Notes under the pieces: generated by a model
Seen by the model: the letters and a program-made list of their open reading frames with translations, nothing else
Told to the model about the DNA's origin: nothing
Database searches by the model: none
In this document: positions 12,244 to 58,323 of the stretch, one piece after another
Numbering within the stretch: the first letter of the stretch is position 1
Layout of the letters: each line of letters opens with the position of its first letter
DNA from: a virus
Taxonomy: Duplodnaviria > Heunggongvirae > Uroviricota > Caudoviricetes
Length of the DNA: 64,000 bases
Reading direction: 5' to 3' (one strand)
Virus record (IMG/VR): IMGVR_UViG_3300031993_000018
Span: 25,614-89,613 of that record
Program-made: the position numbers and the translations under genes

Positions 12244-12245
12244 CA

Positions 12246-45187: not shown

Positions 45188-45970
45188 ATGATTGTCGAAC
45201 AAATGGATAAACCCAAGTATCATTATTTCTATAAAATAACAAATAGACTCAATGGACATTATTATTATGGTGTTCATTCAACATATAATCTTGATGATGG
45301 ATATATGGGGTCTGGAAAAAGATTACATATTGCTTATAAGAAATATGGTATAGAATGTTTTGAAAAGGAAATTTTAAAATTTTTCAATACCAGAAAAGAA
45401 TGTGAGGAATATGAAGAATCAGTTGTTAATGAAATATTGATTGGTGATGACAATTGTTATAATTGTGTACCTGGTGGAGGAACTTTAAAAACTCCAGGAA
45501 AAGCATGCTTCATTGATGAAAATGGTAATATTATACAAGTAACCACAGAAGATGCACATAAGAGAGGATTAAGAGGTAATGCAGTGGGTACAACATTAGT
45601 AATTGTTGATGGTGAATATGTTATGGCTGATGTTGATAAACTTAATGATTATGATTCATTTAAGTATCCTATGAGTGGAAAAATAACAGTATATGACAAA
45701 AATAATAACCATTATGTTGTAAGTTGTGATGATAAAAGATATATTTCTGGAGAATTAAGACCATTCTGGTCAGGTAAAAAACTTTCAGAGGAAACAAAAA
45801 CAAAAATTAAAACATCACTATCACTAATACATCATCAACAAGGTGAAAAAAATTCTCAATATGGAACTTGTTGGATTACTAAAAATAATGAAAACAAGAA
45901 AATTAAAAAAGAGAATTTAGAAACATATCTTAATGATGGTTGGGTTAAAGGAAGATTTATAAAACACTAA
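45188..45970 (+). CDS. free-standing GIY-YIG (Seg-like) homing endonuclease
   Basis: YFYKITN..NG.YYYGVH....DDGYMGSG, F.KEIL..F, E; NUMOD-like tail GW.KGR; sigma-A promoter 45096-45127 and CATAAATA 45174-45181. Confidence 0.88.
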   Translation: MIVEQMDKPKYHYFYKITNRLNGHYYYGVHSTYNLDDGYMGSGKRLHIAYKKYGIECFEKEILKFFNTRKECEEYEESVVNEILIGDDNCYNCVPGGGTLKTPGKACFIDENGNIIQVTTEDAHKRGLRGNAVGTTLVIVDGEYVMADVDKLNDYDSFKYPMSGKITVYDKNNNHYVVSCDDKRYISGELRPFWSGKKLSEETKTKIKTSLSLIHHQQGEKNSQYGTCWITKNNENKKIKKENLETYLNDGWVKGRFIKH

Positions 45971-45985
45971 ATGTGTTAATGATAT

Positions 45986-46295
45986 ATAGGTCTTGTTGAT
46001 ACTTTCAGGAAAAACTGTAGGACACGGGTTCGAGTCCCGCTACCTCCACAAATTTATATTTTTTATATGGGGGTATATTGGTTTTGACTGCTTTTAAGTA
46101 TGGGAAGAGGAGAGGTCTATCGCCAATAACTGGCAAAAACAACAATTTCTCTGTAAACTTTGGCCCTGTTGCACAAACAGCTGCTCCAAAGGCTATGATG
46201 GCTGCCGCTTAATCGTGGTTTCCCTGATTAGTAAGTACACTGGCCAGGCTGGTGTCACAGAAGGTTCTATCCATCTTGTCCAAAAAGATGGATCT
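45986..46295 (+). ncRNA. ssrA: circularly permuted (two-piece) tmRNA
   Basis: Acceptor piece ~45986-46048 (T arm, TACCTCC-A) precedes coding piece starting GGGGGTA at 46069 (G3:U70); helix 2 AAGTAT/ATACTT; tag ORF 46132-46212 (A)GKNNNFSVNFGPVAQTAAPKAMMAAA*. 3' end is approximate. Confidence 0.88.
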
Positions 46296-46460
46296 TTTGA
46301 AAGTTCTTTAAAATATTATATGGGTGGATTGTATGCAGTTCTTGATAAGTCTGTATCAGTACTTGCAGATACTGTCTTGAATTAAAGTAAAGAATAGGAT
46401 CCTGATTACAATAAGTTCCCACCCGCCCTTACAGTTATGGTTAATCTGTGAAAACCAAAT

Positions 46461-46653
46461 GGGTCAATAGCTCAATGGTAGAGCAGCGGACTGTATAAGG
46501 AGTGGTTTACCGGAACAAACCAACCTGGTATGGTCGAGTGGTCAAAGACGTAGGTTTAGAAAACCGGAGTAAGTTAAAAACTTGCAGACGTTGGTTCAAA
46601 TCCAACTATCAGGTCTAATCCGCAGGTTGTAGGTTCGAGCCCTACTTGGCCCG
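46461..46653 (+). tRNA. tRNA-Asn(GTT) interrupted by a 121-nt insert (46495-46615) containing a nested class II tRNA-like element (46524-46614)
   Basis: Exons join into a perfect cloverleaf GGGTCAA..GCGGA-CTGT|TAA-TCCGC..TTGGCCC-G. Confidence 0.85.
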
Positions 46654-46657
46654 CAAA

Positions 46658-46745
46658 GTACATAGGAAGTCCTGGTCGTGGTGCACGCTTATGTTAGGTT
46701 CGGGTTTGATCAACCCACAGAGGTTCGAGTCCTCTCTATGTACCA
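46658..46745 (+). ncRNA. tRNA-like RNA with G-1:C73 (His-like) acceptor end and degenerate anticodon arm
   Basis: GTACATAG/CTATGTAC-CA, T arm AGAGG-TTCGAGT-CCTCT, variable hairpin GGGTT..AACCC. Confidence 0.65.
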
Positions 46746-46762
46746 AATAATAAATATAATAT

Positions 46763-46853
46763 GGAGGAGTGGCAGAGTGGTTTATTGCAGAGGTCTTGAA
46801 AACCTCCGGGCGTGTTGAGCGCCCCGTCGGTTCGAATCCGGCCTCCTCCGCCA
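46763..46853 (+). tRNA. tRNA-Ser(TGA)
   Basis: Class II cloverleaf, encoded CCA. Confidence 0.95.
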
Positions 46854-47034
46854 GTATAACAAATTCCAAAAGTTTGTTATATTTATTAAGGTTTTGTTAT
46901 GTGTTTGTTTTAAGTTAAAGGTTCTAACCGCAACAATTACAAAAAAGATGCTGTTCACATTTTCCAAATGAACCTTGTTTTGTTTCAAACACACAACTTC
47001 AAACCAAATAAACATTTAAATTAATTAAAAAAGT

Positions 47035-47676
47035 ATGAAGAAATTTTTGGCGTTTCTTATGAGCCTTGTGCTCATTTTCGGTTTGAGTTCATGTAACTCT
47101 TGCACAAGAAACCAGACTACTCCTACTGAAGAGACCACACCGGCAGTTGCTGAGTTGGTTGTTGAGAATGTAATCTCTACTGACCGTCAGGCAATGTACC
47201 TTGCACATGGTGGTGACTACAGATGGTATGAGACTGGTGTTCAACTCAAGGACTGGCTTGATGAAGAGAATGATGGTACTATCGATATGGTAGTTAATGT
47301 TTTCCAGGTAATTGAGGAGTATGATTCAACAAGTTTTGATACCTATGTTTACAAGTATCAGCATTTTTCAGATGGTACTGTAAATGAAGATGGTGTTCAT
47401 GGTTTCTGGGTTGAGGATTATCCTCTTGAACAGGAAGTAATTAAGGTAACATTCAAGGAAGCTTACCAGAAGATCCAGGAAGTTAATCTCCCAAGACCTC
47501 ATTCACGTCAGGTTGTATTGAGAAAGCCTATCGGTCCTAAGGATTGCAATCCACAGTGGATATTTGGTAATCTCCATGAGCAGATTTGGGTTGATGCAGT
47601 TACAGGTGAAGTTACTAACAGTAACCCTGCATTTGATGGTCTGAATCTCGGTACTCCACTTGGTGAGTGGCCCTAA
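47035..47676 (+). CDS. lipoprotein of unknown function
   Basis: Signal peptide MKKFLAFLMSLVLIFGLSSC. Confidence 0.8.
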   Translation: MKKFLAFLMSLVLIFGLSSCNSCTRNQTTPTEETTPAVAELVVENVISTDRQAMYLAHGGDYRWYETGVQLKDWLDEENDGTIDMVVNVFQVIEEYDSTSFDTYVYKYQHFSDGTVNEDGVHGFWVEDYPLEQEVIKVTFKEAYQKIQEVNLPRPHSRQVVLRKPIGPKDCNPQWIFGNLHEQIWVDAVTGEVTNSNPAFDGLNLGTPLGEWP

Positions 47677-47763
47677 TAGAAACAATATAGGTTGAATGGT
47701 ACAACCTGAAGTTAAATATCCACAGGGAAAGGGTTAGCCCTGGAAGTTAAAGTCACCCAATAC

Positions 47764-47888
47764 TATGATGTGACAAGGAATAGGTATACTTGCGCCACGA
47801 GATAATATCAGATGGAAGAAGAGGAAGGGTATTCTTCATAAAAGTTGGACTAATTTAGTCAATGTGGGTTCGAGTCCCACTATCATAG
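47764..47888 (+). ncRNA. expanded tRNA-like RNA (125 nt)
   Basis: TATGATG/TATCATA-G acceptor, CAAG/CTTG D stem, GTGGG-TTCGAGT-CCCAC T arm, enlarged centre. Confidence 0.65.
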
Positions 47889-47895
47889 CAAATAT

Positions 47896-47969
47896 CGTGG
47901 GGTGCTAGCAGTGGTCAGCTAACTGGGCTCATAACCCAGAGGTCAGGGGTTCGAATCCCTTCCCCGCTA
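47896..47969 (+). tRNA. tRNA-fMet(CAT)
   Basis: C1 mismatch, GGG/CCC anticodon stem, loop CTCATAA. Confidence 0.9.
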
Positions 47970-47977
47970 CTAAACTT

Positions 47978-48115
47978 GCCAGTATAGGACAGTATATTGG
48001 ACATCTGTAACCTCATGGGAGGTCGCAAGAGAGAATGAAGGTAACATCTTCAACGTACCGGGTTAGTTCAAAGTAGAATACTCTTGTTATGTAAGTTCGA
48101 TTCTTACTATTGGCA
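47978..48115 (+). ncRNA. expanded tRNA-like RNA (138 nt)
   Basis: GCCAGTA/TATTGGC-A acceptor, GTAAG-TTCGATT-CTTAC T arm, several internal hairpins. Confidence 0.65.
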
Positions 48116-48144
48116 CAAAAAAAAATAAAAAAGTTTCAAAAATA

Positions 48145-48196
48145 TTTGGTAGTTTCAAATTTTTTTGTTATCTTTGTAGTGTTGAAAGTTCTTTGA
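48145..48196 (+). promoter_or_regulatory. sigma-A promoter plus boxA-like AGTTCTTTGA (near-identical block at 56651-56699)
   Basis: TTTG-N20-TATCTTTG followed by AGTTCTTTGA at 48187-48196. Confidence 0.8.
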
Positions 48197-48205
48197 TAGT
48201 TTTAA

Positions 48206-49285
48206 ATAAAACAAGGGTGGGTTTCTCATCCTTCCCAAGAAGCCTTCGGGTTGAGGGAGAAAGATAACCAGTGAATACATAAGCTGGGAAAGTCAGTAAG
48301 ATATTGCATAGTATCCCTGGCGGAGGGTTCAAATCCTCCCTGTAAGAAAACCAAGATGGTCAGCATATCCTGGAATGGCAGTACACTGTGAAAGGGGTAT
48401 GCGGAGGCTCTTACCAAGTCTCCTTGAGTGGTAACACTGACAAGAACCATTTTGCTTCCGGACAAAAAGATTACCGGTCTGATTGTCTGAATGACCAAAG
48501 TTTATTGATATCCAAGAGACTACACCAAGTCTTCCTAACAGGTGGTGCTGAGATTCCAGAAATGGTTGGATATTAGAATTAGTAGAATGAGTAACACAGA
48601 GGTGTGTGAAAGTAGAAAGGTGATGTATCTAAACCTCTCAAAAGGAGGCATGATAACAAGGGTAACCTCATCTTTCAATCGGTAAATGCTCAATGATTCA
48701 AATTGGATGTTGACCAAAGACAGAATAATTAGATTATTAAGCAAGCAAAAGTGTTACCCACACTGTAGGACAATACAGTTATGCTTCTGTAAGATGAAGC
48801 CTTATGGATCCCGCAAAGTGAAGTAAGAGTATCGCCAGTATGGACAATGCAAGTGGAGGCATCCACTCAACTCGGCAGAGGTCTTTGGCTTGAAAGCAGC
48901 TATGTAATACAGTGTAGTGACTATGGTAGTCTTGGTGGAAACACCATAAATCCACCTGTATCCGCTTCACCAATAGCAATGTTGGTGTGTGTAAATCTCA
49001 GGCGACTGGGACTTGTCCTGAAAAGGAAGAGAGTAGAGGCGGCGATTGGGGTCAACACTCAGCCCAAATCAATGAATTATTCAGAGTCGGTAACCAGTCC
49101 GGTATGGAAGAGCGAGACTTCCCTGGATAACAAAGTGATATTATAGAGGTACAAATTCTCCTGAATATATAGAACCACTCAGGAGGTTAATTCGAGGCCA
49201 GGGATATTACTGAAACAAATTCCCTTTTGGTTCACAGGGAATGGGAAGAGTGAGTTTGTAATCTGCGAGGTCGGGTTAGTTTTAT
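48206..49285 (+). ncRNA. candidate giant structured ncRNA (~1.08 kb; GOLLD/ROOL-like context)
   Basis: No credible ORF, visibly GC-richer than flanks, many hairpins, ends ATAAAAC/GTTTTAT, lies between a promoter/boxA and tRNA-Asp. Confidence 0.55.
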
Positions 49286-49295
49286 CTCTTCAAAT

Positions 49296-49369
49296 GGTGC
49301 GTTGGTGAAGTTGGTTATCATGCCACCCTGTCACGGTGGAGTTCACGGGTTCGAGTCCCGTACGCACCG
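49296..49369 (+). tRNA. tRNA-Asp(GTC)
   Basis: Loop CTGTCAC, G73. Confidence 0.95.
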
Positions 49370-49531
49370 CACATAAATATTATGTAAAGAACCATACCGC
49401 AATTTTAAACAAATTTCATTTTGATTGAAGAAACCATTGGTTCTTGTTTCGTTTCTTTGTTTAGAAAAACAAAGTGGCAGAGACTGGTGGAAACACCCCT
49501 CTTGTGAGTGGTAATCTCACATACAAAAACT

Positions 49532-49614
49532 TGCCGGCTATACCCTGGAGGTAAAGGTGTCACAGGCCTATGCATGGGCTGTTTGCAGTACTGGTTCGAA
49601 TCCAGTCTGGGTAG
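49532..49614 (+). ncRNA. non-canonical tRNA-like RNA
   Basis: T arm ACTGG-TTCGAAT-CCAGT, extended D stem ATACC/GGTGT, long central hairpin. Confidence 0.5.
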
Positions 49615-49667
49615 CAAATAAAAATGAAAATTGAATTTACATAAATAACTTATAAAGATTAAAAATT

Positions 49668-49884
49668 ATGATGACATTGCATACACATATTATGTTTATT
49701 GCGGGCAAGCCAGGTTGTTATCGTTTTTGGGAACAGAAGCAACTCGGACCTAAAGGTGTGTGGGTATGTCACCAGGATAAATAAGGATTAAACCAGGATA
49801 GGAAAGAAGGTACAGGAAATCCAACAAATATCAATAGAGACATCTCACACAAATCCAAAAAAAGATTTATGTGAGATTTTTTTT
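49668..49884 (+). promoter_or_regulatory. second leader peptide (49668-49784, MMTLHTHIMFIAGKPGCYRFWEQKQLGPKGVWVCHQDK) with antiterminator/terminator
   Basis: GTGTGGGTATGTC (49758-49770) pairs with GACATCTCACAC (49839-49850), which overlaps the terminator at 49842-49884; CATAAATA at 49640. Confidence 0.65.
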
Positions 49885-49892
49885 ATTAACAC

Positions 49893-49967
49893 TGGGTAGT
49901 ACGGTAATTGGTTCACCGGCTGCATTTGGGATGCAGACATATGCGAGTTCGAGTCTCGTCTACCCAA
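49893..49967 (+). tRNA. tRNA-Pro(TGG)
   Basis: Loop TTTGGGA. Confidence 0.88.
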
Positions 49968-49992
49968 CAAATATACAAAACAAAATAAGATT

Positions 49993-50238
49993 ATGGAGAC
50001 ACTCAAACAGATTGTGAAGGGAAGTGCAAAGTTGGAATGCATGAGGAGTGGTGGTGTCGCAGAATACATCATCACATCAGAGACAGGAAAAAGATATGTA
50101 TTGGACATAGACCTGTCAGACAAGGTGGACTGTGGAGAGAGTGCTTCATTTATGCCATACTATGAGAGAGCAATAATCCTGATGCGATGGATTCGCAGAG
50201 CAATGGAGAAGGGTGAATTGATAGAGTTAAATTCATAA
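49993..50238 (+). CDS. hypothetical protein
   Basis: 81-aa ORF with A-rich leader. Confidence 0.7.
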   Translation: METLKQIVKGSAKLECMRSGGVAEYIITSETGKRYVLDIDLSDKVDCGESASFMPYYERAIILMRWIRRAMEKGELIELNS

Positions 50239-50397
50239 ACACATCCGAGATGATCATAGGATGTGGGTTGGGAAGATGAGGATATGTCCGAAAAATTGCA
50301 TAAAGTAGGATGTATTTAGGTAGCGAGCCCCTCCCTGGTAGCCAAACAGGTAGTTTAAAGTGCTTAAGAACAGACCAATCATTGAATTATTAGATAT

Positions 50398-50472
50398 GCC
50401 GGGTTCTACTAATTGGAATAGGTACCCTGATTTTCAATCAGTGCAATATGGGTTCGAGTCCCATACCCGGTA
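50398..50472 (+). tRNA. tRNA-Glu(TTC)
   Basis: Loop TTTTCAA. Confidence 0.85.
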
Positions 50473-50477
50473 CAAAT

Positions 50478-50560
50478 GCGGATGTGGTGTAATGGTAGCC
50501 ACACTTGGTTCAGAGCTAAGCGGCCGAAAGGCCATATGGGTTCGAGTCCCTTCATCCGCA
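50478..50560 (+). tRNA. tRNA-Leu(CAG)
   Basis: Class II, loop TTCAGAG. Confidence 0.92.
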
Positions 50561-50565
50561 CACAT

Positions 50566-50639
50566 TGGGGGATCATCTAATAGAGTAAGGATACCACTCT
50601 GATACAGTGGAAATCCGGGTTCAAATCCCGGCCTCCCAA
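50566..50639 (+). tRNA. tRNA(GAT) on a Gln/Glu-like body
   Basis: U1:A72 TGGGGGA acceptor, TCATCTAAT D region, loop CTGATAC. Confidence 0.7.
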
Positions 50640-50673
50640 CAAAAGAAAGTTCTTTGACATATTGTACACATTT

Positions 50674-50749
50674 GGGTCTGTGGCAGAGATGGTCTATGCG
50701 CTGGACTGAAAATCCAGAGAAGGAGGTTCGAGTCCTCCCGGACCCACCA
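50674..50749 (+). tRNA. tRNA-Phe(GAA)
   Basis: Loop CTGAAAA, encoded CCA. Confidence 0.93.
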
Positions 50750-50957
50750 AGATTTGGGAAAAGGTTCTTGCATTGATGAAAGTAAATGACACCAGACACC
50801 TGATCAGTGAGGAAGTGTTGTTGAAATCGTCTAAAGTTGAGATGGGGAAAGTGTCATCAGTACTAGTCAAATGATGGGATGGAACTCAAGGAGACATATA
50901 CTCTGCCTGGCGTGGGAGTCAGGAGGTTCATCAGCAAGTAAAGTGGAATCTTGACCT

Positions 50958-51041
50958 GTGGGAGTGGCGTAACTGGTAGCCGCGTCGGTCTAAGAAGCCG
51001 ATCCCAGAAATGGGGTGAGAGTTCGAGTCTCTCTTTCCACA
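50958..51041 (+). tRNA. tRNA-Leu(AAG)
   Basis: Class II, loop CTAAGAA (A34). Confidence 0.88.
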
Positions 51042-51047
51042 CAATAT

Positions 51048-51130
51048 TGGTCCCGGCATCATAGTAGATGTCATGGAAGCTGCCTGATTCAGCAGGACTG
51101 AACAGTGGGGTTCGATACCCTGGGGACCAT
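51048..51130 (+). ncRNA. non-canonical tRNA-like RNA
   Basis: TGGTCCC/GGGACCA acceptor, 5-bp D stem, 8-nt central loop CTGATTCA. Confidence 0.5.
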
Positions 51131-51135
51131 CAAAT

Positions 51136-51258
51136 GTATATGTGAAGCAGATAGGATGTGCTACTACAAGAATTAGTAATCATTTGGATATTGCATACAT
51201 ATGTTCAGTAGAGATGAAAAGGATGTGGACTATGTGAGTTCGAATCTCATCATATACA
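51136..51258 (+). ncRNA. expanded tRNA-like RNA (123 nt)
   Basis: GTATATG/CATATAC-A acceptor, GTGAG-TTCGAAT-CTCAT T arm. Confidence 0.65.
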
Positions 51259-51263
51259 TAAAT

Positions 51264-51338
51264 GCTCCCGTAGCTGAGTTGGTTCAAAGCACCTGTCTCT
51301 TAAACAGGGGATCCTGGGTTCGAGTCCCAGTGGGAGTA
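51264..51338 (+). tRNA. tRNA-Lys(CTT)
   Basis: Loop CTCTTAA. Confidence 0.95.
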
Positions 51339-51348
51339 CAAAACAACT

Positions 51349-51637
51349 GGGGCACAGAGGAGATAAATCGGCTGGAAGCCAGCATTCTATGAAGTCATGA
51401 ATTCATAAAGTGTACTCTGTGTGAGGGTTTTTACCAGAGATTGCATCATGCAATTGATGAATGGGAGTTTCCCTTTTAAGTTCGAATCCACAGTGCTCCA
51501 CAAATGCCGGCTTATCACAGTATATAGGTGACTGTAGCCGCCCCGTACAGGCGGGTCTGGCCAACCGAAAGTGTACAGCTCGAGACAATGTATATGAGTA
51601 GAAGTCAGATATGGATGGTTCGATTCCTCCGATGGCA
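51349..51637 (+). ncRNA. two degenerate expanded tRNA-like RNAs (51349-51500, 51506-51637)
   Basis: GGGGCAC/GTGCTCC-A and GCC../..GGC-A ends, each preceded by a GTTCGA T-loop motif; T stems imperfect. Confidence 0.5.
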
Positions 51638-51867
51638 CAAAGTTTGTTATATTTTAATAAAGGGTTCTTTATGACAGTTTGAACCTTAGATGTTAATAAC
51701 TGTTAGTAGTCCTTTGCATCTTTATCCTACTATATCTTATGAAGATGTTTTAAGCCCAAAGTACACGGGAACGAAGATGGGATCTGCCTCTTAACAATGC
51801 ATACTGAATCCTCCAAAACGTAGGTTGGCACAGTTAGACCTCTGGGGTTATTCTAAAAGGTCATTAT

Positions 51868-51940
51868 GGACCATGTAGTGTAACGGCGAGCATATCACAT
51901 CTGCACTGTGATGGAGGGGTTCGAATCCCACATGTGTCCA
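51868..51940 (+). tRNA. atypical tRNA, loop TCTGCAC (Ala TGC, or shifted Cys GCA)
   Basis: D, anticodon and T arms present; bulged acceptor stem. Confidence 0.55.
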
Positions 51941-52215
51941 CAAATGAATATTTGAGGTTCCAGAAGGCTTCCGTAATGTGGCATAGTCGGAGGAGACACT
52001 GGAGATGGATAAACATGGAAATTCGGGCTACCGGGTGAGGCAGTGTTAGACGAGGAGGCTTGCTGGAATAAGCAGTCCGGGTAGAATATTCATCACAAAA
52101 CCACAGAGTGTCCAGAGTGTCGAAGCATTGGTTGGTATGATGCTTTAAAAGTTTAAACTCTACTCCGAAAGTGGGCGACATATTCGAGACTATACTCTGT
52201 GTGACAAAACTTTTC

Positions 52216-52291
52216 TATGGTATCTTCTAGTGGTCCAGGAAGTCCGAGGCTAACAGCGGTAGGGACAGAGGTTCGAATCCTCTTACCATAG
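52216..52291 (+). tRNA. Gln-like tRNA with enlarged anticodon region containing CTA
   Basis: U1:A72, G73, TCTTCTAGTGGTCCAGGA D arm; three extra nt in the anticodon arm. Confidence 0.55.
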
Positions 52292-52313
52292 CAAATTAAA
52301 TAATTCATATAAT

Positions 52314-53021
52314 ATGAAATTAGGAAATTTAAAGTATCATTATTTTTATAAGATAACCAACAATATAAATGGTCATTTTTATTATGGTGTTCATAACACA
52401 AATAATTTAGATGATGGTTATATGGGTAGTGGTTTAAAATTACAAGAAGCATATAAAAAATATGGTATTGAAAACTTCACTAAAGAAATATTAAAGTTCT
52501 TTGACACATCTGAAGATGCATTTAAATATGAAAGTGAGATTGTTACAATTGATTTAATAAAGTCAAAGAAATGTTATAATATTCAACTTGGTGGTAAATC
52601 CATTAACACTTCTGGTTTAATTGTTGTTATTGATAAAAATAATATAAAAACATTAATACCAAAAGATGATGACAAAATAATAAAAGGTAATGTGAAAATT
52701 TATTCTCCTTTAAAAAATAAATTGGTTGTAAAATATAAAAATGATAATGATTATTTTTTAATTAATAGTGATGAATATGATTCTAACATTTATGAAACAA
52801 GTTGGACAAATAGACATCACACACAAGAATCAAAAAGTAAAATAAGAAAGACTTTAACACCTCAAAATTCTAATAATTCACACATATGGATTAATAAAAA
52901 TGGGATAGTTAAATATTTAGATAAAAGAAAATTAGATGAATATTTAAATGATGGATGGACATTGGGAAGAAGTGGATATAAACCAAGAAAGGGATGTAGA
53001 GGTAAGAAAATAGAAATATAA
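52314..53021 (+). CDS. free-standing GIY-YIG (Seg-like) homing endonuclease, paralog of 45188
   Basis: YFYKITNNINGHFYYGVH...DDGYMGSG; very AT-rich. Confidence 0.88.
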   Translation: MKLGNLKYHYFYKITNNINGHFYYGVHNTNNLDDGYMGSGLKLQEAYKKYGIENFTKEILKFFDTSEDAFKYESEIVTIDLIKSKKCYNIQLGGKSINTSGLIVVIDKNNIKTLIPKDDDKIIKGNVKIYSPLKNKLVVKYKNDNDYFLINSDEYDSNIYETSWTNRHHTQESKSKIRKTLTPQNSNNSHIWINKNGIVKYLDKRKLDEYLNDGWTLGRSGYKPRKGCRGKKIEI

Positions 53022-53024
53022 TTT

Positions 53025-53111
53025 GGGAAGGTTGAGCAAATGGTTGAGCTCATCGGTCTGTAAAACCGACACTATGAAACACTGTGGGTTCGAGTCCCAC
53101 CCTTCCCACCA
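53025..53111 (+). tRNA. tRNA-Tyr(GTA)
   Basis: Class II, encoded CCA. Confidence 0.93.
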
Positions 53112-53114
53112 AAT

Positions 53115-53185
53115 GCAGGATTAGTTTAATGGTAGAATGTCAGCCCTCCAAGCTGAATGTGGGAGTTCGATTCTCCTATCCTGCT
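53115..53185 (+). tRNA. tRNA-Gly(TCC), C33 variant
   Basis: Loop CCTCCAA, U73. Confidence 0.88.
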
Positions 53186-53191
53186 CTAAAT

Positions 53192-53266
53192 ACCGATGTA
53201 GCTCAGTTGGTCCAGAGCAGTGGACTCATATTCCACAGGTCATTGGTTCGATTCCAATCATCGGTA
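53192..53266 (+). tRNA. tRNA-Met(CAT)
   Basis: Loop CTCATAT. Confidence 0.92.
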
Positions 53267-53281
53267 CAATAAATATTATAT

Positions 53282-53368
53282 AGGTCGGTGGCCGAGTGGT
53301 CGAAGGCAGCGGTCTCCAAAACCGCCAAGATGGTAACATCTTCGAGGGTTCGAATCCTTCCCGGCCTG
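53282..53368 (+). tRNA. tRNA(CCA, Trp anticodon) with a Ser-like class II body
   Basis: Loop CTCCAAA; long variable arm AAGATG-GTAA-CATCTT; G73. Confidence 0.85.
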
Positions 53369-53378
53369 CTTGAGGAAT

Positions 53379-53450
53379 TGGACTATTGTGTAATGGTTAG
53401 CACATCAGATTTTGGATCTGACAGTCTGGGTTCGAATCCCGGTAGTCCAG
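53379..53450 (+). tRNA. tRNA-Gln(TTG)
   Basis: U1:A72, loop TTTTGGA, G73. Confidence 0.95.
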
Positions 53451-53550
53451 CAAAGTAAGAGTGTGGAAATAACTTGTAACTCAAGTAGAGAGTTTCCAGT
53501 AAATGGGTGGTGAGAAGAGTAATGAACTTACAATTTAGCCTTACTGAAAT

Positions 53551-53621
53551 TGGGATATAGTATAAGGGTAGTACGTTTGACTCTGGATCAAAAGGTGTGG
53601 GTTCGAATCCTGCTATCCCAG
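53551..53621 (+). tRNA. tRNA-Gln(CTG)
   Basis: U1:A72, loop CTCTGGA, G73. Confidence 0.93.
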
Positions 53622-53627
53622 CAAAAT

Positions 53628-53698
53628 GTCGGGGTGGCCGAGGGGCTAGGCAGCGGTCTGCAAAACCGCCTACGCAGGTTCGAATCCTGTCTCCGACT
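53628..53698 (+). tRNA. tRNA-Cys(GCA)
   Basis: Loop CTGCAAA, U73. Confidence 0.95.
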
Positions 53699-53770
53699 CT
53701 AAACTCTGGAGCATACCGCCAGTACGGAAGTGGAAAAGAGGTACTGCTCTGTTTCCTACCAGAGTTAAAT

Positions 53771-53842
53771 GTCCCTGTGGTGTAATGGACAGCATACCAG
53801 ACTACGGATCTGTTGGAGAGGGTTCGAGTCCTTCCAGGGATA
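53771..53842 (+). tRNA. tRNA-Arg(ACG)
   Basis: Loop CTACGGA. Confidence 0.92.
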
Positions 53843-53876
53843 CTAAAATTTTGTTATATTTAATGTATAACATCTT

Positions 53877-53948
53877 GCCGGGGTAGCTCAGTGGTAGAGT
53901 ACATCTTTGGTAAGGATGAGGTCAAGAGTTCAAATCTCTTCTTCGGCT
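53877..53948 (+). tRNA. tRNA-Thr(GGT)
   Basis: Loop TTGGTAA. Confidence 0.95.
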
Positions 53949-53953
53949 CAAAT

Positions 53954-54025
53954 GCAGTGTTCGTATAATGGTTATTATATAGCCTTGCCAAGGCTGAGAT
54001 GGGAGTTCGATTCTCCTACACTGCT
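53954..54025 (+). tRNA. tRNA-Gly(GCC)
   Basis: Loop TTGCCAA. Confidence 0.92.
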
Positions 54026-54026
54026 C

Positions 54027-54213
54027 AAAGTATACATAAAACGTTAATCCCGAGAATGATAGGTTACCACAAGGCAGTAGGTGTAAAAGAATAATTACTG
54101 TTTAACAAGTCTGCAACAGGGATCCCGGTAGTAATACTGAGTGTTCAGCGAAATCTGAAATAGAGTGATAACTAAAGGTGAAAGTCCTTACAAACGTCCT
54201 ATCTGTATACTTT
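54027..54213 (+). ncRNA. unidentified ~187-nt structured RNA
   Basis: Perfect 10-bp terminal helix AAAGTATACA/TGTATACTTT between two tRNAs. Confidence 0.55.
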
Positions 54214-54218
54214 TATAT

Positions 54219-54295
54219 GGTGATGGTGGCCGAGTGGTATAGGCGCATGCCTGTGGAGCATGTTTACGTGGGTTCGATCCCCACCCTTCACCCCA
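54219..54295 (+). tRNA. tRNA-His(GTG)
   Basis: G-1:C73, loop CTGTGGA, encoded CCA. Confidence 0.95.
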
Positions 54296-54308
54296 AATTA
54301 CAAAAGTT

Positions 54309-54632
54309 ATGGACAAAGATTTTAAAAAGAAGTTCCTGACAGACACTGATGAGACAGGAAGGTTTATTGTAAAGTCATTGAAGACAGGTAAGACCTACTT
54401 TGTTGAACCGGTGAACCAAGGTGTAAGAACAAACTGGGGAGACCTGGATCCAGTCACAAGAAAGATGACCGGAAGTTATGGAGAGAAATACAAGGGAAGT
54501 GTAACTCCTGATGAGTCTCTCATAACAGAGGAAAATGGATTTGATAAGGTATATACATTAAGTCCTGGTGAATCTCCTCTTTCTTACATTGATATGATTG
54601 ATGATGAGTATTTTAAAAAGATGAATAAATGA
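54309..54632 (+). CDS. hypothetical protein (followed by a 41-aa membrane peptide at 54629-54754)
   Basis: ORF track plus hand translation. Confidence 0.75.
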   Translation: MDKDFKKKFLTDTDETGRFIVKSLKTGKTYFVEPVNQGVRTNWGDLDPVTRKMTGSYGEKYKGSVTPDESLITEENGFDKVYTLSPGESPLSYIDMIDDEYFKKMNK

Positions 54633-54750
54633 AACCGAGAATTTACAGAAGACACAGGGATGACACTAATCTCAGGACTAATATGAACATCATATTGGCA
54701 ATTGGTGGAACTATAATTTTATTGGGTGTATTTTATTTGATGTTCATAAT

Positions 54751-55689
54751 ATGAGTAAAAGGATATTGGTGACCGGTGGTGCTGGATTCATAGGTTCAAA
54801 CCTTTGTAAGAAACTTGTGAATGAAGGTAATGATGTCATATGTCTGGACAACTTCTATACAGGAAGAAAGGACAATATATATGAACTGATAGGTCAGAAG
54901 AATTTTGAACTTGTTAGACATGATGTATGTCAGCCTTACCTGGCGGAAGTTGATGAGATATACAACCTTGCATGTCCCGCTTCTCCGATACATTACCAGA
55001 ATGACCCCATCCAGACAACAAAGACATCTGTCCTGGGTGCATATCATATGCTGGGATTGGCAAGGAGGACAAAGGCAAAAATACTCCAGGCATCTACAAG
55101 TGAGGTCTATGGTGACCCGACTGTCCATCCACAGACAGAAGATTACTGGGGAAATGTGAACTGTCACGGTTTCAGGTCCTGTTATGATGAAGGAAAAAGA
55201 TGTGCCGAATCATTGTTCTTTGACTACAACCGTATGCATGGGATAAGGATAAAGGTGATAAGGATATTCAACACCTATGGTCCCAATATGGCAGTCAATG
55301 ATGGAAGGGTGATTTCAAACTTCATCAACCAGGCACTCAATGATGAGGATATCACGATATATGGTGACGGAAGTCAGACCAGGTCTTTCCAGTACATTGA
55401 TGACCTGATAAATGGTATGACAAAGATGATGAATACTGATGATTCATTCACAGGTCCGGTCAATATAGGAAACCCTCAGGAATATACAGTACTGGAACTG
55501 GCAAACAAGGTGATAGACCTGACAGGTTCAAAGAGCAAGATAGTATTCTGTCCTCTGCCTTTTGATGATCCAAAGAAGAGGAAACCGGATATAACACTGG
55601 CAAAGAAGGAATTAGACTGGTCACCAAAGGTTGATGTTGATGATGGGTTGATTAAGACAATAGAATATTTCAAGTCATTGAGAAAGTAA
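54751..55689 (+). CDS. UDP-glucuronate decarboxylase (UDP-xylose synthase), extended SDR
   Basis: [44 protein letters not shown]. Confidence 0.92.
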
Positions 55690-55695
55690 TATTCT

Positions 55696-55777
55696 GGGAG
55701 TGTCGCATAGTGGCAATTGCAAGGGTCTGTAACACCCTCGCCTTCGGGCTTCGGAGGTTCGAGTCCTCCCGCTCCCA
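55696..55777 (+). tRNA. tRNA-Tyr(GTA)
   Basis: Class II, loop CTGTAAC. Confidence 0.93.
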
Positions 55778-55793
55778 CAAAAACTTTAAGGTT

Positions 55794-56126
55794 ATGAAAA
55801 AGACAGTTAAGTTTTTCAAACAGGATGACAAATGGTATGCAGACATTCCAAACCACACACTGGATGAAAATGAGATGGTGATGGGTTCTGATATTATGTT
55901 GGAGATGTTTGCGAACGGTGCGAAGGAACTCACATTAACATTGTCTGATGATGATATGTCTGATGCATTCATAACATTGAGAAGAAAGGAACATGATGAG
56001 GATGGTGCCTGGTACACAGTGTTCGGGACAGACTTTGAGGATGTTTGGATATGTAATGTGACACATGATGTCTTCGGTGAACACCCTGAATGTATCTACA
56101 TCAGTAAGATAACTCAACATAAATAA
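55794..56126 (+). CDS. hypothetical protein
   Basis: MKKTVKFFKQDDKWYADIP...; start moved because the track ORF overlaps tRNA-Tyr. Confidence 0.75.
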   Translation: MKKTVKFFKQDDKWYADIPNHTLDENEMVMGSDIMLEMFANGAKELTLTLSDDDMSDAFITLRRKEHDEDGAWYTVFGTDFEDVWICNVTHDVFGEHPECIYISKITQHK

Positions 56127-56213
56127 GGGGATGTGCTGAAACTGGCAGCCAGGCCAGACTTAGGATCTGGTGTCCGGAAGGACGTATGGGTTCGAGTCCC
56201 TTCATCCCTACCA
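56127..56213 (+). tRNA. tRNA-Leu(TAG)
   Basis: Class II, encoded CCA. Confidence 0.95.
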
Positions 56214-56290
56214 CAGTCTTTCGGGACTTTAAAGAGTTGTAGAAATACAATCCATCGAGGTCAGTCCAGAACCAGTTAATCTGGACATTT

Positions 56291-56373
56291 GCGGCAGTGG
56301 CGGAATGGTAGACGCGCCACTTTGAGGGGGTGGTCCGGGCAACCGGGTATGGGTTCGAGTCCCATCTGCCGCA
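56291..56373 (+). tRNA. tRNA-Leu(GAG)
   Basis: Class II, loop TTGAGGG. Confidence 0.93.
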
Positions 56374-56474
56374 CAATAAAAAGGGTGGGCCAATCGGAAT
56401 AAGGCAGGGTAAGTCTCCGGTTCTTCTTTGATGAGGGTGCACCAGTAATCAAAGTTTCTTAAATTACCCAACCC

Positions 56475-56548
56475 GGGCAAGTAACTCAGTTGGTTAGAGT
56501 ACCACTCTGATACAGTGGTGGTCGTAGGTTCGAGTCCTACCTTGCCCA
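56475..56548 (+). tRNA. tRNA-Ile(GAT)
   Basis: Loop CTGATAC. Confidence 0.93.
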
Positions 56549-56556
56549 CAACAAAT

Positions 56557-56631
56557 GCCCCTATCATACTAATAGGTTTAGGTGGCCACCCTCTCAAGGT
56601 GGAGATACGGGTTCGAATCCCGTTGGGGGTA
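56557..56631 (+). tRNA. tRNA-Glu(CTC)
   Basis: Loop CTCTCAA. Confidence 0.9.
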
Positions 56632-56890
56632 CAAAAAATATTCAAAAATATTTGGTAGTTTCAAATTTTTTTGTTATCTTTGTACTGTAAGTTCATTGAA
56701 ATATTGATGCACATATAGGAACAACAAGATGGGGTACCTATAAGTCTCACATAAGGATTCTAGATTGAGGGGGTGTGAGAGAAGGGTACAAATAATGTTA
56801 AAGAGGATTCCCGACCCTTAATAGGAGGAGAAAAGCGCTCTCTCCGATCCTCTGACAACAGTGACTACGGAAATCTGTTGTGTTCTTTAT

Positions 56891-56973
56891 GCCCAGGTGG
56901 GGGAATGGTAGACCCAGCTGTCTCAAAAGCAGCCGACCATCCGGTCATGTGAGTTCGAGTCTCACCCTGGGCA
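56891..56973 (+). tRNA. tRNA-Leu(CAA)
   Basis: Class II, loop CTCAAAA. Confidence 0.95.
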
Positions 56974-57587
56974 CTTTGATGAAAATCCTAGGTGGGTGGT
57001 ATCTATAGCAGACTCCTTTAAAATGGGGAAGGAGGAAAGATACCGAATACTGGACAGGTGGTTTCGTCTAGCATCCTGGTGAGGGGGAATGTCCTCACAA
57101 GACCACTTGAGAATGGTGACTACGGAATTCCATTTGTTTTCATTTTTTATGGTGGGGTTATCAAACTTAACCACCCGCATCCTTGAAGAGAATGTGTTGC
57201 CGAGCCGTGTCAAGTTTATCTTGTATCCGGAGGAGTGAAACTTCCAAGTTGACAGGTTATTGCACTCGCCTGTCAATTATTACTGAACCCACCAGTAAGA
57301 CTGTTAAGCAGTATATCAGTATGGTACATGGGAGTTGTGCATGAGCTGGCTGAAGAGTAGTTTCCGGATATGGTGTTGAAACCCGGGGAAAATGAAAAGT
57401 AAGTCAATAGCAATAGGGAACCGGTGGAGTTACTGTGACTTTGTAATTTTGTCCATTACAGAACCGGGGAAATAATGGAACACCAATGTGGCTAAAATGG
57501 TAGGGATTCACAAAAATCAGTGAAGGTGGCCACACACCTGGACAATCACTGATTACGAAAATTATTTTTTATAAATATATAACAGTT

Positions 57588-57659
57588 GGCGCCCTCGTCT
57601 ATCGGTTAGGACACGAGATTTTCATTCTCGGAAGAGGGGTTCGATTCCCCTGGGCGCTA
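57588..57659 (+). tRNA. tRNA-Glu(TTC)
   Basis: Loop TTTTCAT. Confidence 0.93.
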
Positions 57660-57719
57660 CTAATCAACCGGAAGGTTGTTTACTATCCAGTCAATAATTC
57701 ATGAATAAACCTGGGTAGA

Positions 57720-57793
57720 GGTCTGATAGCTCAGATGGTGAGAGTACCACACTGATACTGTGGAGGTCACAAGTTCAAGTCTTGTTCAGACTA
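57720..57793 (+). tRNA. tRNA-Ile(GAT)
   Basis: Loop CTGATAC. Confidence 0.92.
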
Positions 57794-57803
57794 CGAAACA
57801 TAT

Positions 57804-57903
57804 CGCGGGGGAGTGAAACGGATAAGAACATCCCACAAGTTTGTTCAAAGATCATTACAGGCTCATAACCTGTAGATACTGGCTTCGACTGCCAGACCCG
57901 CAA
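57804..57903 (+). tRNA. fMet-like tRNA(CAT) with a ~28-nt hairpin insertion in the D loop
   Basis: CGCGGG/CCCGCA with C1:A72, loop CTCATAA, insert GAACA..TGTTC between GTGA and TCAT. Confidence 0.7.
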
Positions 57904-57907
57904 CAAA

Positions 57908-58065
57908 GACCTTTATGAAGCAAGTGGAATTCGGTATTTCAACCTATGCAAGTTATCAGAGTCAGTGTACAATGAATCTGAAGAACAGTATAAAAGTCAA
58001 TACTGATAAGTCTTCTGTGGAAATTCAAGCCCAGTTGTCCTGGTTCGAGCCCAGGTAAAGGTCCA
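57908..58065 (+). ncRNA. expanded tRNA-like RNA with G-1:C73 (158 nt)
   Basis: GACCTTTA/TAAAGGTC-CA, T arm CCTGG-TTCGAGC-CCAGG. Confidence 0.65.
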
Positions 58066-58087
58066 TATACAACAAAAAACAACAAAC

Positions 58088-58231: not shown

Positions 58232-58238
58232 AAACCTT

Positions 58239-58320: not shown

Positions 58321-58323
58321 CAA

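Follow-up and report, generated by a model that had tools for sequence, protein, structure and literature searches.

On balance, we favor the view that positions 46461–46653 hold a working tRNA-Asn(GUU) gene split by a mobile, non-self-splicing intron, and that the gene is spliced, along a route we infer, by tRNA end-processing enzymes together with a phage RNA ligase. Coordinates refer to the window, the whole 64,000-nt stretch of phage DNA that was analyzed. To our knowledge, the tRNA introns of bacteria and phages are thought to be self-splicing ones only, of group I or II. The present intron has no such self-splicing core, yet its exons are kept functional, and therefore something must cut and rejoin these tRNAs. 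The interrupted gene is one of 11 complete split tRNA genes of the same design, and comparison among them gives the proposal its testable parts: a ruler from T loop to exon 2, a terminal C in the place of C74, and an invariant N-U-A start. These features turn a published curiosity into a testable mechanism.

The split tRNA-Asn gene and its 121-nt insert

The interrupted gene is laid out as follows:

46461–46494, + strand: exon 1 of tRNA-Asn(GUU), from ARAGORN on the joined exons
46495–46502, + strand: 5′ single strand of the intron, ATAAGGAG, in which +2 U and +3 A are invariant across the intron family
46503–46522, + strand: leader hairpin TGGTTT/AAACCA with loop ACCGGAAC, from RNA folds
46523–46614, + strand: tRNA-like domain, a Ser-type class II cloverleaf, from ARAGORN, Rfam and alignment with the window's Ser(TGA) gene
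46615, + strand: last intron base, an unpaired C 14 nt past the T loop, at the place of C74, compared over 11 introns
46616–46653, + strand: exon 2 of tRNA-Asn, from the joined-exon cloverleaf

Exon 1 supplies the 5′ strand of the acceptor stem, the D arm, the 5′ strand of the anticodon stem and loop nucleotides C32 U33 G34 U35, and exon 2 supplies U36 A37 A38, the 3′ strand of the anticodon stem, the variable loop, the T arm, the 3′ strand of the acceptor stem and G73, so that the split falls between anticodon nucleotides 35 and 36. Excision of 46495–46615 leaves a flawless 73-nt cloverleaf with acceptor stem GGGTCAA/TTGGCCC, D stem GCTC/GAGC, anticodon stem GCGGA/TCCGC, T stem GTAGG/CCTAC and discriminator G73; a perfect tRNA-Asn(GTT) had been read here in the preliminary description, and ARAGORN on the joined exons agrees. 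Only at the junction proposed there does ARAGORN call Asn(GTT). Moving it by 1–3 nt keeps the fold, but the Asn-type body then carries an anticodon for Ser, Arg or Tyr. Run with default settings on the genomic sequence, the program misses the gene, while its -io option detects a split gene at 46461–46654. The practical consequence is that tRNA finders miss or misname the split genes of this intron family. Because an uninterrupted tRNA-Asn gene is present in the same phage (42747–42821), the split copy could be dispensable.

The insert runs in order through an 8-nt single strand, a hairpin, the tRNA-like cloverleaf and a single final C. It starts A-T-A, and the following AGG (+4 to +6) is pairable with CCT at 46524–46526, at the 5′ edge of the tRNA-like domain; at +4 most family members have C instead of this A. 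The domain carries an anticodon loop TTAGAAA, an acceptor helix CCTGGTA/TATCAGG extended by an A(-1):T73 pair, and a T arm GTTGG TTCAAAT CCAAC, and its closing helix and T stem add up to 13 bp, one above the standard tRNA. ARAGORN calls the nested element Ser(AGA) at 46524–46615, and the Rfam tRNA model scores it at 45.8 bits (46524–46614), with an A.G mismatch in the anticodon stem and a D stem of only 3 bp as its flaws. Folds, ARAGORN and Rfam thus match the layout first described, from the ATA start and the TGGTTT/AAACCA hairpin to a class II tRNA-like element ending 1 nt before exon 2. The idea of a nested tRNA stands in part: the element has the shape of a tRNA and stops one base short of exon 2, but its full size is not conserved, the closest relatives (contigs L120 and L156) having at the same place a 69-nt stump with acceptor helix and T arm only and no anticodon arm. 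A Shine-Dalgarno reading of AAGGAG was discarded, with no start codon at a usable distance and, in L120, none whatever.

As judged from sequence, the intron is not self-splicing by any known route. Within the 46461–46653 region no Rfam intron or ribozyme family, RF00028 included, matched at E ≤ 1, and known small self-cleaving ribozymes (hammerhead, HDV-like, twister, pistol, hatchet and others in Rfam) gave no match at E ≤ 1 or E ≤ 5; as a positive control, the group I intron in the neighboring tRNA-Ser gene of L120 was detected by RF00028 at 42.9 bits (E 1.5e-9). All 11 introns end in C rather than the G of group I introns. By manual inspection of sequence and folds, no bulge-helix-bulge—a 4-bp helix flanked by two 3-nt bulges—could be drawn, and the earlier statement that the insert has neither a group I/II core nor this motif holds. 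EndA (PF01974) is absent from phage genomes G000 and G001, with archaeal controls positive and the search confined to phage genomes; among the phages' own genes there is no EndA, RtcB or RNase Z. Other rules for the cut sites were tried and dropped. A helix starting exactly at +1 as an RNase P site fits some copies and fails in five (D, E, G, H and J); pairing of the exon 1 end with GUA of the tRNA-like 5′ strand changes register between copies and is absent in two (F and J); and the spacing between the outer D loop and the cut varies (13, 14 or 15 nt). Hammerhead N-U-H logic fits neither splice site, and an HDV-like ribozyme wants a G at +1, which is never present in these introns.

The intron family and selection on its exons

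The split tRNA-Asn is real but not unique: complete split genes for Asn, Thr, Leu, Arg, Val and Pro tRNAs were found, 11 in all, from three phage lineages and one gut contig. The window holds a second:

59756–59911, + strand: split tRNA-Thr(UGU), with exon 1 at 59756–59790, an 83-nt intron at 59791–59873 and exon 2 from 59874

The introns, 79–121 nt long, all share an N-U-A start, a helix from +4, a leader hairpin, a tRNA-like domain and a terminal C, and in every one the T loop of the tRNA-like domain ends exactly 14 nt before exon 2. The middle, by comparison, is replaceable, being a full tRNA, the 69-nt stump or other fillers. A longer leader, with 8–9 nt of single strand and a separate hairpin whose loop is pairable with +4 to +6, is found in the window copy and six others. 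The +4 to +6 triplet and its partner change together (CAG:CUG in four cases, CGG:CCG in two), and introns G and I keep ACCGRRAC as leader loop with both strands of the stem changed (AGCCC/GGGCT, TGTTC/GAACA). The final C also has a counterpart outside the family. Among the ordinary tRNA genes of three phages, 95 of 98 have C74 and only 13 a full CCA; the intron's last base is therefore the point up to which those genes are conserved.

The split tRNA-Asn recurs in three other contigs (L120, L156 and L157), with a leader identical at 28 of 29 positions in all four copies while the exons differ. Arg, Thr and Val genes contain related leaders; for instance, introns D (Thr) and H (Val) lie in separate phages, with leaders that agree at 27 of 28 positions. 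The recurrence of one leader in tRNA genes of different identity and from different phages indicates that the introns are mobile. The introns in the orthologous Thr genes of G000 and G001, moreover, are not the same and interrupt the genes at separate points, 36/37 and 34/35. The search for copies by exon 1 sequence returned 116 loci, nearly all ordinary Asn genes; a leader-sequence search found nothing beyond L120, L156 and L157, and a search via the neighboring tmRNA recovered L120 alone. ARAGORN -io, run over all the other loci, called nothing but group I introns and chimeras of adjacent tRNAs, and no introns of the family were found in the relatives G002, G003 and G004.

The way the exons diverge supports reading 46461–46653 as a genuine interrupted tRNA gene with both exons under selection. 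All 11 exon pairs give cloverleaf tRNAs after excision, with standard pairs in 207 of 210 cloverleaf pair cells, and they retain the identity features of their anticodon (among others G73 in Asn, C1-G72 plus A73 in Pro and a long variable arm in Leu). Orthologous exons have diverged at about a quarter of positions, and each stem change is compensated, including in pairs between exon 1 and exon 2. For example, the Asn genes of the window and L120 differ at five acceptor pairs, with the changes paired across the intron; pair 27-43 of the anticodon stem is G-C in L120 and A-T in L156; and the three split Thr genes show paired differences in acceptor, anticodon and T stems. Covariation in relatives had been suggested as a check on the gene, and compensatory changes are indeed seen in both exons across the three other contigs. 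Decayed exons, which would have pointed to a dead gene, are seen in none of the 11 genes. Nine of the 11, in addition, are the sole gene for their anticodon in the phage's tRNA set. In the tRNA sets of G001 and G005, which number 26–35, Asn, Thr, Leu(UAA), Val, Pro, Arg(UCU) and Arg(CCU) are represented by split genes alone.

Candidate enzymes, a possible splicing route and its rivals

Genes that may bear on splicing or on intron mobility are found in the same window:

11271–13930, + strand: four tandem P-loop kinase genes (AAA_33, polynucleotide-kinase-like) and a metallophosphoesterase gene, possible end-healing enzymes, from profile matches
15029–16411, + strand: ATP-dependent RNA ligase of 460 aa, candidate exon joiner (PHROG 968 'RNA ligase', 6.7e-46; Pfam PHA02142 OB fold)
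45188–45970, + strand: free-standing GIY-YIG-type homing endonuclease gene, ending 491 nt upstream of the split Asn gene (PHROG 314 'homing endonuclease', 1.5e-30)
59156–59749, + strand: HNH-type endonuclease gene directly upstream of the split tRNA-Thr (Pfam HNH and HNH_3, E ~5e-4, below cut-offs)

Profile matches thus bear out the kinases, phosphoesterase and RNA ligase first noticed in one cluster at 11.3–16.4 kb, and the GIY-YIG gene described as about 490 nt upstream, although its Pfam GIY-YIG match (0.0027) is below the cut-off. The ligase had been called Rnl2-type; it stands closer to the Naegleria ligases (Rnl5-type, N-terminal OB), by a weak match to Naegleria RNA ligase, and would be of their nick-sealing type as opposed to the anticodon-loop-specific T4 Rnl1 type. 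The window phage and the two other intron-bearing phages examined, G001 and G005, have an RNA-repair gene set including the ligase, and a ligase homologue is encoded as well in G002, where no such intron was found. A CCA-adding enzyme, a Thg1-like enzyme and several unknowns are found only in the three intron-bearing phages and are absent from three intron-less relatives, a comparison of six related genomes, some of them incomplete, that cannot single out the splicing nuclease.

These parts can be assembled into a route. RNase P and RNase Z recognize stacked acceptor and T arms, and the tRNA-like domain would recruit the enzymes that mature ordinary tRNAs. RNase P would cut in front of the domain, and a 3′ endonuclease of the RNase Z kind would cut behind the unpaired C, 14 nt past the T loop, freeing exon 2 with a 5′ phosphate. 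Across the family the RNase P cut would leave a leader of 27–31 nt on exon 1, and a separate cut at the 5′ splice site would therefore be needed. The preliminary description had proposed that ordinary processing of the nested tRNA frees both halves; the tRNA-shaped unit does end one base before exon 2, but RNase P alone would leave 28 nt on exon 1 of the window copy. A further endonuclease may accordingly—and here the candidates are an RNase E/G-type enzyme or a phage enzyme reading the leader—cut the RNA one nucleotide 5′ of the leader's invariant U-A; RNase E/G-type enzymes prefer a U at +2. The phage RNA ligase would then seal the two halves, held together by the tRNA body. ATP-dependent RNA ligases join a 3′-OH to a 5′-phosphate; should the cuts instead leave cyclic-phosphate and 5′-OH ends, the neighboring kinases and phosphoesterase could heal them first. 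Because the terminal C takes the place of the conserved C74, tRNA end-processing enzymes are the suggested cutters and the phage ligase the suggested joiner. Cutting after that C is nevertheless an assumption, because RNase Z usually cuts after N73, C74 disfavors RNase Z in Bacillus, and the 13-bp helix is one pair over the standard. More tentatively, large phages of Bacteroidota might use a protein-dependent form of tRNA splicing not known from bacteria, built on a tRNA-shaped handle for RNase P and a 3′ endonuclease cutting behind C74, a nuclease for the N-U-A leader and a phage ligase, with the introns spreading as mobile elements.

RNA data touch the locus lightly. Parts of 45950–47700 are present in 24 mostly rumen RNA runs, four of which were compared with 45900–60100. 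In these four rumen metatranscriptomes contig cover is thin (46374–46847) and no contig joins 46494 to 46616, though contigs cannot show absence. One contig, X1, matches both exons around a different anticodon arm (CACGG CTGTTAA CCGTG) and so was rejected as a spliced product of the split gene at 46461–46653; it derives from a separate Asn tRNA, which a relative either encodes without an intron or makes by splicing.

That no spliced RNA was seen would also suit a selfish DNA insert in a dead gene, the halves of which are perfect since the insertion is recent and the nested unit is the only notable RNA, with the phage using its second Asn gene and host tRNAs. The uninterrupted gene, the mobility of the inserts, and homing-endonuclease genes near several copies (GIY-YIG upstream of the split Asn, HNH upstream of the split Thr and of the L157 copy) lend this reading some weight, but we think it quite improbable in view of the compensated exon divergence, the 11 flawless cloverleaves with their identity features, and the split genes of G001 and G005 that are the only ones of their kind. 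The same endonuclease genes, beside three copies, fit a reading that we regard as unlikely, in which protection is the main selective reason for the insert: it would break the DNA site of a neighboring homing endonuclease or, up to a late stage of processing, hide the anticodon loop from a host anticodon nuclease. Splicing would still be required, and removal of a homing-endonuclease target, as suggested earlier, would be compatible with it. Different introns at 36/37 and 34/35 of the Thr genes are as expected from repeated invasion of the same target, and tRNA repair makes up a heavy genetic investment in this group of phages; against this, copies B, D, E and F in G001 have no endonuclease gene close by, and the two HNH proteins are barely similar to each other.

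The intron itself might, alternatively, be the functional RNA. A new, very small self-cleaving or self-splicing RNA, in which the N-U-A start, the +4 helix, the leader loop and the terminal C form a catalytic fold and proteins serve at most for ligation, would account for the conservation of sequence, beyond structure, at both ends and in the leader loop of distant copies. No protein endonuclease could be named for the 5′ site, and kinases and a phosphoesterase beside the ligase suit the healing of the cyclic-phosphate and 5′-OH ends that ribozymes leave. The prospect is nonetheless very doubtful: Rfam ribozyme and intron models gave no match at E ≤ 1–5, the middle is freely replaceable, the conserved stretches are short, with simple helices accounting for most of them, and the sole strict metric, 14 nt from T loop to cut, is a ruler of the kind used by protein or RNP tRNA-processing enzymes. 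It is also unlikely that the nested unit is a working tRNA-Ser(AGA), with the split Asn gene as its expression or processing cassette. Its complete class II cloverleaf, Ser-type D loop, long variable arm and Rfam score speak for such a tRNA, but the stem mismatch and 3-bp D stem do not, Ser(UGA) and Ser(GCU) genes are already present in the phage, and A34 is unusual among bacterial Ser tRNAs. Since L120 and L156 lack an anticodon arm there, decoding is not what the intron family conserves.

Relation to known systems

The closest precedent is found in the Lak megaphages, for which four 'enigmatic' tRNA introns were tabulated, situated in the anticodon loop of otherwise intact phage tRNA genes and belonging to no Rfam family; one of them, in a Thr UGU gene, was said to 'encode a possible tRNA' (Devoto 2019, Table S6). 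By eye, all four have an N-U-A-C-A start, a hairpin from +4, a tRNA-like domain, a T loop 14 nt before exon 2 and a C as last base (sequences from Devoto 2019, Table S6), and the leader of intron F (Leu, G001) resembles that of the Lak Phe intron. The Lak introns obey the same rules, so the window intron by its sequence features joins them in a single family, a published kind whose mechanism has hitherto been unexplained. For these introns excision was remarked to fall in truth one base away from where tRNAscan places it, in agreement with the terminal-C rule, and no architecture, mechanism or link to ligase genes was described for them (Devoto 2019); we found no paper in the literature that explains these introns. 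The phages differ, those studied here being of ~240–345 kb and 38–40% G+C from rumen and gut, compared with 540 kb and 26% G+C for Lak, and the introns differ in the class II Ser-type cloverleaf of the window copy and in the longer leader that it shares with six others. As a separate observation, a Lak 'Tyr' gene of the published table (Devoto 2019) reads better as Asn in our view.

Group I introns of bacterial, plastid and phage tRNAs, such as tRNA-Leu(UAA) (RF00028), share with this family the anticodon-loop position, mobility and an association with free-standing or intron-borne homing endonucleases. They differ in having a catalytic core, a length of ~200 nt or more and a terminal G, as opposed to 79–121 nt, a tRNA-like domain and a terminal C. 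Both kinds meet in L120 and G005, where the adjacent tRNA-Ser(UGA) gene holds a true group I intron. Archaeal and eukaryotic tRNA splicing (bulge-helix-bulge, EndA/Sen, RtcB or Trl1) likewise deals with short anticodon-loop introns lacking catalytic RNA, some of which carry other functional RNAs, and cutting by proteins followed by a ligase would be shared. Those introns, however, lie at 37/38 rather than at 34/35 to 36/37, and the phages here have no bulge-helix-bulge, EndA or RtcB; in the phage family the splice sites are set by intron features and not by the mature tRNA domain.

The tRNA repair system of phage T4 (Pnkp and Rnl1) and the RNA-repair sets of jumbo phages offer a parallel in their clustered kinase, phosphoesterase and ATP-dependent RNA ligase. 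Repair genes of the T4 type are known to serve in resealing tRNAs that have been cut in their anticodon loop. During T4 infection a defense nuclease of the host cuts a mature tRNA, whereas here the break would be part of the normal maturation of an intron-bearing gene, and the ligase subfamilies differ, T4 Rnl1 against a Naegleria-type OB fold. If the proposed route is correct, phage RNA ligases and repair kits have a housekeeping job in tRNA splicing besides countering defense nucleases, and tRNA-shaped handles are a general way of programming RNase P and RNase Z cuts. Such handles are familiar from mascRNA at the MALAT1 3′ end, mitochondrial tRNA punctuation and the permuted tRNA genes of Cyanidioschyzon, in each of which a tRNA-shaped element embedded in a larger RNA brings RNase P and RNase Z to cut at its two ends. 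In those cases the cuts release neighboring RNAs, and in none are the flanks rejoined into a tRNA, as we propose for the split tRNA-Asn gene.

The split tRNA-Asn gene and its neighborhood

The window, taken from an IMG/VR virus record of 153.6 kb judged 64% complete, carries 41 tRNA genes according to ARAGORN, together with a permuted tmRNA. The split Asn gene escapes a default ARAGORN run, which reports only the element nested within it, tRNA-Ser(AGA) at 46524-46615 (45.8 bits on the Rfam tRNA model); with introns allowed and overlaps permitted, the program calls a split gene at 46461-46654. Its parts are:

46461-46494: exon 1, last bases C-T-G-T
46495-46615: intron
46616-46653: exon 2, first bases T-A-A

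The joined exons form a 73-nt cloverleaf, called tRNA-Asn(GTT) by ARAGORN. Moving the junction by 1-3 nt folds equally well, but places a Ser, Arg or Tyr anticodon on an Asn-type anticodon arm with G73. Within the 121-nt insert, ATAAGGAG is followed by a hairpin (TGGTTT/AAACCA, 8-nt loop), one A, a 91-nt cloverleaf of class II and a terminal C. The preliminary description of 46461-46653—a tRNA-Asn split by an insert whose nested class II tRNA-like element stops one nucleotide before exon 2—is borne out by the sequence and by the ARAGORN calls with and without the insert.

The closest relative, G001 (the 345-kb contig L120), was reached via the lipoprotein gene downstream of the split gene, and its layout between tmRNA and lipoprotein gene is the same. 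The intron leaders, preceding the tRNA-like domain, agree at 28 of 29 positions, while the Asn acceptor stem reads GGCCAGG/CCTGGCC in G001 versus GGGTCAA/TTGGCCC in the window. Searching metagenome contigs with the leader yielded a human-gut contig, L156, and a contig with a cut-off copy, L157. The L156 intron (98 nt) differs from that of G001 by one base, and anticodon-stem pair 27-43, which joins exon 1 to exon 2, has changed on both sides, from G-C in G001 to A-T in L156. Covariation among relatives, named as a check in the preliminary description, is thus seen in both the acceptor stem and this pair.

The nested unit of the window copy aligns as a Ser-type class II tRNA; its anticodon stem contains an A.G mismatch, its D stem has 3 bp and its anticodon, AGA, is unusual. 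The anticodon arm is missing altogether in relatives; in G001 the unit is a 69-nt stump of acceptor helix (TCTGGTA/TACCAGA), small hairpin and T arm, and nothing else. Most simply, the unit is a Ser tRNA captured as an intron handle, or an ancestral form of that handle. Decoding by it is possible, yet is not the feature that the intron family has kept.

Several other RNAs and genes lie close by. A circularly permuted two-piece tmRNA at 45991-46212 (ARAGORN 45957-46303; Rfam tmRNA_permuted, 56.4 bits; 26-residue tag) is conserved in G001 and L156. Directly behind the split Asn gene lies a conserved tRNA-like RNA (window 46658-46747; L120 5424-5505), missed by ARAGORN and Rfam, with an 8-bp terminal stem (GTACATAG/CTATGTAC), T arm, small hairpin, CCA end and no usable anticodon arm; L156 has another element there, with a different 7-bp stem. 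A GOLLD-like large RNA at 48615-49065 matches Rfam RF02032 with 77 bits (E 8e-20), short of the gathering score (150); among the stretches covered in four rumen metatranscriptomes, its region (48270-49217) is by far the deepest, with a summed contig depth of 175-477. Upstream of the tmRNA the window carries a GIY-YIG gene; G001 has neither a GIY-YIG nor an HNH gene there, and in L157 an HNH endonuclease gene (84-593, minus strand) directly precedes the split Asn gene.

The intron family: distribution and architecture

Intron-permitting ARAGORN on whole records, and a pattern built from two inserts that led to a third lineage, G005 (139 kb), brought the total to 11 complete split tRNA genes.

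Complete split tRNA genes by identity
Asn: 3 copies (window, G001, L156)
Thr(UGU): 3 copies (window 59756-59911; two in G001)
Leu(UAA): 1 copy (G001)
Arg(CCU): 1 copy (G005)
Arg(UCU): 1 copy (G005)
Val(UAC): 1 copy (G005)
Pro(UGG): 1 copy (G005)

With the intron removed, all 11 yield tRNA calls bearing the expected anticodon, and standard pairs fill 207 of 210 stem cells when the ten class I genes are aligned. The split Leu gene has a long variable arm, and its D arm resembles that of the window's intact Leu(UAA) gene; the split Pro gene keeps the identity features C1-G72 and A73. Within phage tRNA sets of 26-43 genes, nine of the 11 are the sole gene for their anticodon: in G001, Asn, Thr and Leu(UAA) are represented by split genes only, as are Val, Pro, Arg(UCU) and Arg(CCU) in G005. 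Moreover, the Thr genes preceding the same 206-aa gene in the window's phage and G001 hold different introns at different positions (36/37 versus 34/35), and the leaders of intron D (Thr, G001) and intron H (Val, G005) are alike at 27 of 28 positions. Intact cloverleaves, sole-gene status, differing Thr introns and a shared leader point to a mobile intron entering functional genes and away from decaying pseudogenes.

The window's second split gene, tRNA-Thr(UGU) at 59756-59911, is its phage's only Thr(UGU) gene; in its 83-nt intron (59791-59873) the leader hairpin is simple and the tRNA-like domain is a mini version, and an HNH-type ORF (59156-59749) lies directly upstream. In a phage tRNA-Asn at about 690-760 of L048 (IMGVR_UViG_3300048838_000238), unrelated sequence follows right after the anticodon loop CTGTTAA; this gene may carry an insert at a different position.

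The introns (79-121 nt, last base C; letters below denote single introns) all open with N-U-A, U+2 and A+3 being present in 11 of 11. A complement exists for positions +4 to +6, which usually read C-R-G. In C and F these positions start a simple hairpin; in D, E, G, H, I and J the complement is a C-Y-G located in the loop of the next hairpin, and the two sides covary (CAG:CUG in four cases, CGG:CCG in two). Introns A, B, D, E, G and H offer an alternative partner at the start of the tRNA-like domain, in its first three bases, and either pairing may be the one used. The stem of the leader hairpin is 5-6 bp long. Its loop, ACCGRRAC, is constant in A, B, G and I, where all five adjacent stem pairs change on both strands. 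The 3' module is always a closing helix beside a T-arm-like hairpin (UUCGAAU, UUCAAAU or UCCGAAG); T stem and closing helix together stack 13 pairs, followed by one unpaired C and then exon 2. In every one of the 11 introns, 14 nt separate the end of the T loop from exon 2. Since the exon sides of the junctions have nothing in common and the split falls at 34/35, 35/36 or 36/37, the splice sites must be set by the intron.

Proposed excision and joining

Rfam intron and ribozyme models found no match in the window intron or in D and E, while the group I intron of the adjacent tRNA-Ser(UGA) in G001 was detected (RF00028, 42.9 bits, E 1.5e-9), and no bulge-helix-bulge could be drawn; the lack of a group I/II core and of a bulge-helix-bulge had been noted in the preliminary description. 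The same group I insert (185-186 nt) interrupts the tRNA-Ser(UGA) genes of G001 (gene at L120 5542-5813) and G005 (gene at 46822-47092, minus strand), so the same phages hold two kinds of tRNA intron; the window's tRNA-Ser(UGA), at 46763-46853, is intron-less. No EndA, RtcB or RNase Z-like protein is encoded in the window's phage or G001; any tRNA-processing nuclease would be the host's. The genes foreseen for rejoining are present:

11.3-16.4 kb: RNA-repair cluster of four tandem AAA_33 kinases, a metallophosphoesterase and a 460-aa RNA ligase

This ligase resembles Naegleria enzymes more than the suggested Rnl2 type; it matches PHROG 968 and the Pfam PHA02142 OB fold, and weakly a Naegleria RNA ligase. 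Homologues occur in G001 (84% identity), G005 and the intron-less relative G002, and none was found in G004, another such relative. The kinases, paralogous 160-aa P-loop proteins resembling polynucleotide kinase, occupy 11271-13218, ahead of the phosphoesterase and ligase genes. All three intron-bearing phages, but none of G002-G004, encode a CCA-adding enzyme and a Thg1-like enzyme, a link that is only suggestive in genomes that are few, related and partly incomplete.

The 3' splice site offers the best hint to the machinery. In standard numbering the last intron base is C74, and C follows the discriminator in 95 of 98 ordinary tRNA genes of the window's phage, G001 and G005, of which only 13 have the full CCA (CAA being the commonest continuation); the splice site thus coincides with the limit of conservation in ordinary genes. 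All 11 introns pair N73 with N-1, versus ~60-78% of ordinary genes. Conservation of C74 suggests that 3'-end maturation retains it and that the phage-encoded CCA-adding enzyme completes the end; the same 3'-end enzyme may cut intron and ordinary tRNAs alike.

Architecture, selection on the exons, mobility and the lack of a known self-splicing core are all observed in the sequences, and on balance we lean slightly toward a functional tRNA gene with a protein-spliced, tRNA-handle intron. More tentatively, and as one version of this, RNase P would cut in front of the tRNA-like domain and an RNase Z-type enzyme just past the C, leaving exon 2 free with a 5'-phosphate end; another cut, ahead of N-U-A, would release exon 1, and the phage ligase would seal the nick in the anticodon loop. 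As a candidate 5' nuclease, RNase E/G, which prefers U at +2, fits four of the five start motifs, and these only loosely. The route has weak points: the 3' cut must fall after C74, not after N73, and the phage ligase is of a nick-sealing type. No spliced RNA was seen in RNA data that comprise thin contigs only. A dead gene is improbable given intact, often sole genes, and a new small ribozyme, outside the known cores searched, seems about equally so. Protection from a homing or anticodon nuclease, itself rather unlikely, would be an added reason for the intron that is compatible with protein splicing.

Introns of Lak megaphage tRNAs

The tRNAs of Lak megaphages contain introns termed 'enigmatic', of which the one in Thr(TGT) may itself encode a tRNA (Devoto et al. 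2019). Compared by eye, the four introns printed in Table S6 of that study all have an N-U-A-C-A start, a hairpin from +4, a tRNA-like domain and a last base C, and in all four the T loop and exon 2 are 14 nt apart. The Lak Phe intron and the G001 Leu intron have closely similar leaders. The true excision point lies one base off the tRNAscan call (Devoto et al. 2019), in agreement with the terminal-C rule. Table S6 also lists a Tyr(GTA) gene whose body is of class I and whose discriminator is G73; under this rule its intron sits at 35/36, as in the window gene, and its anticodon becomes GUU (Asn). On these shared sequence rules, the split Asn gene of the window is a further member of a published, so far unexplained, kind of intron.
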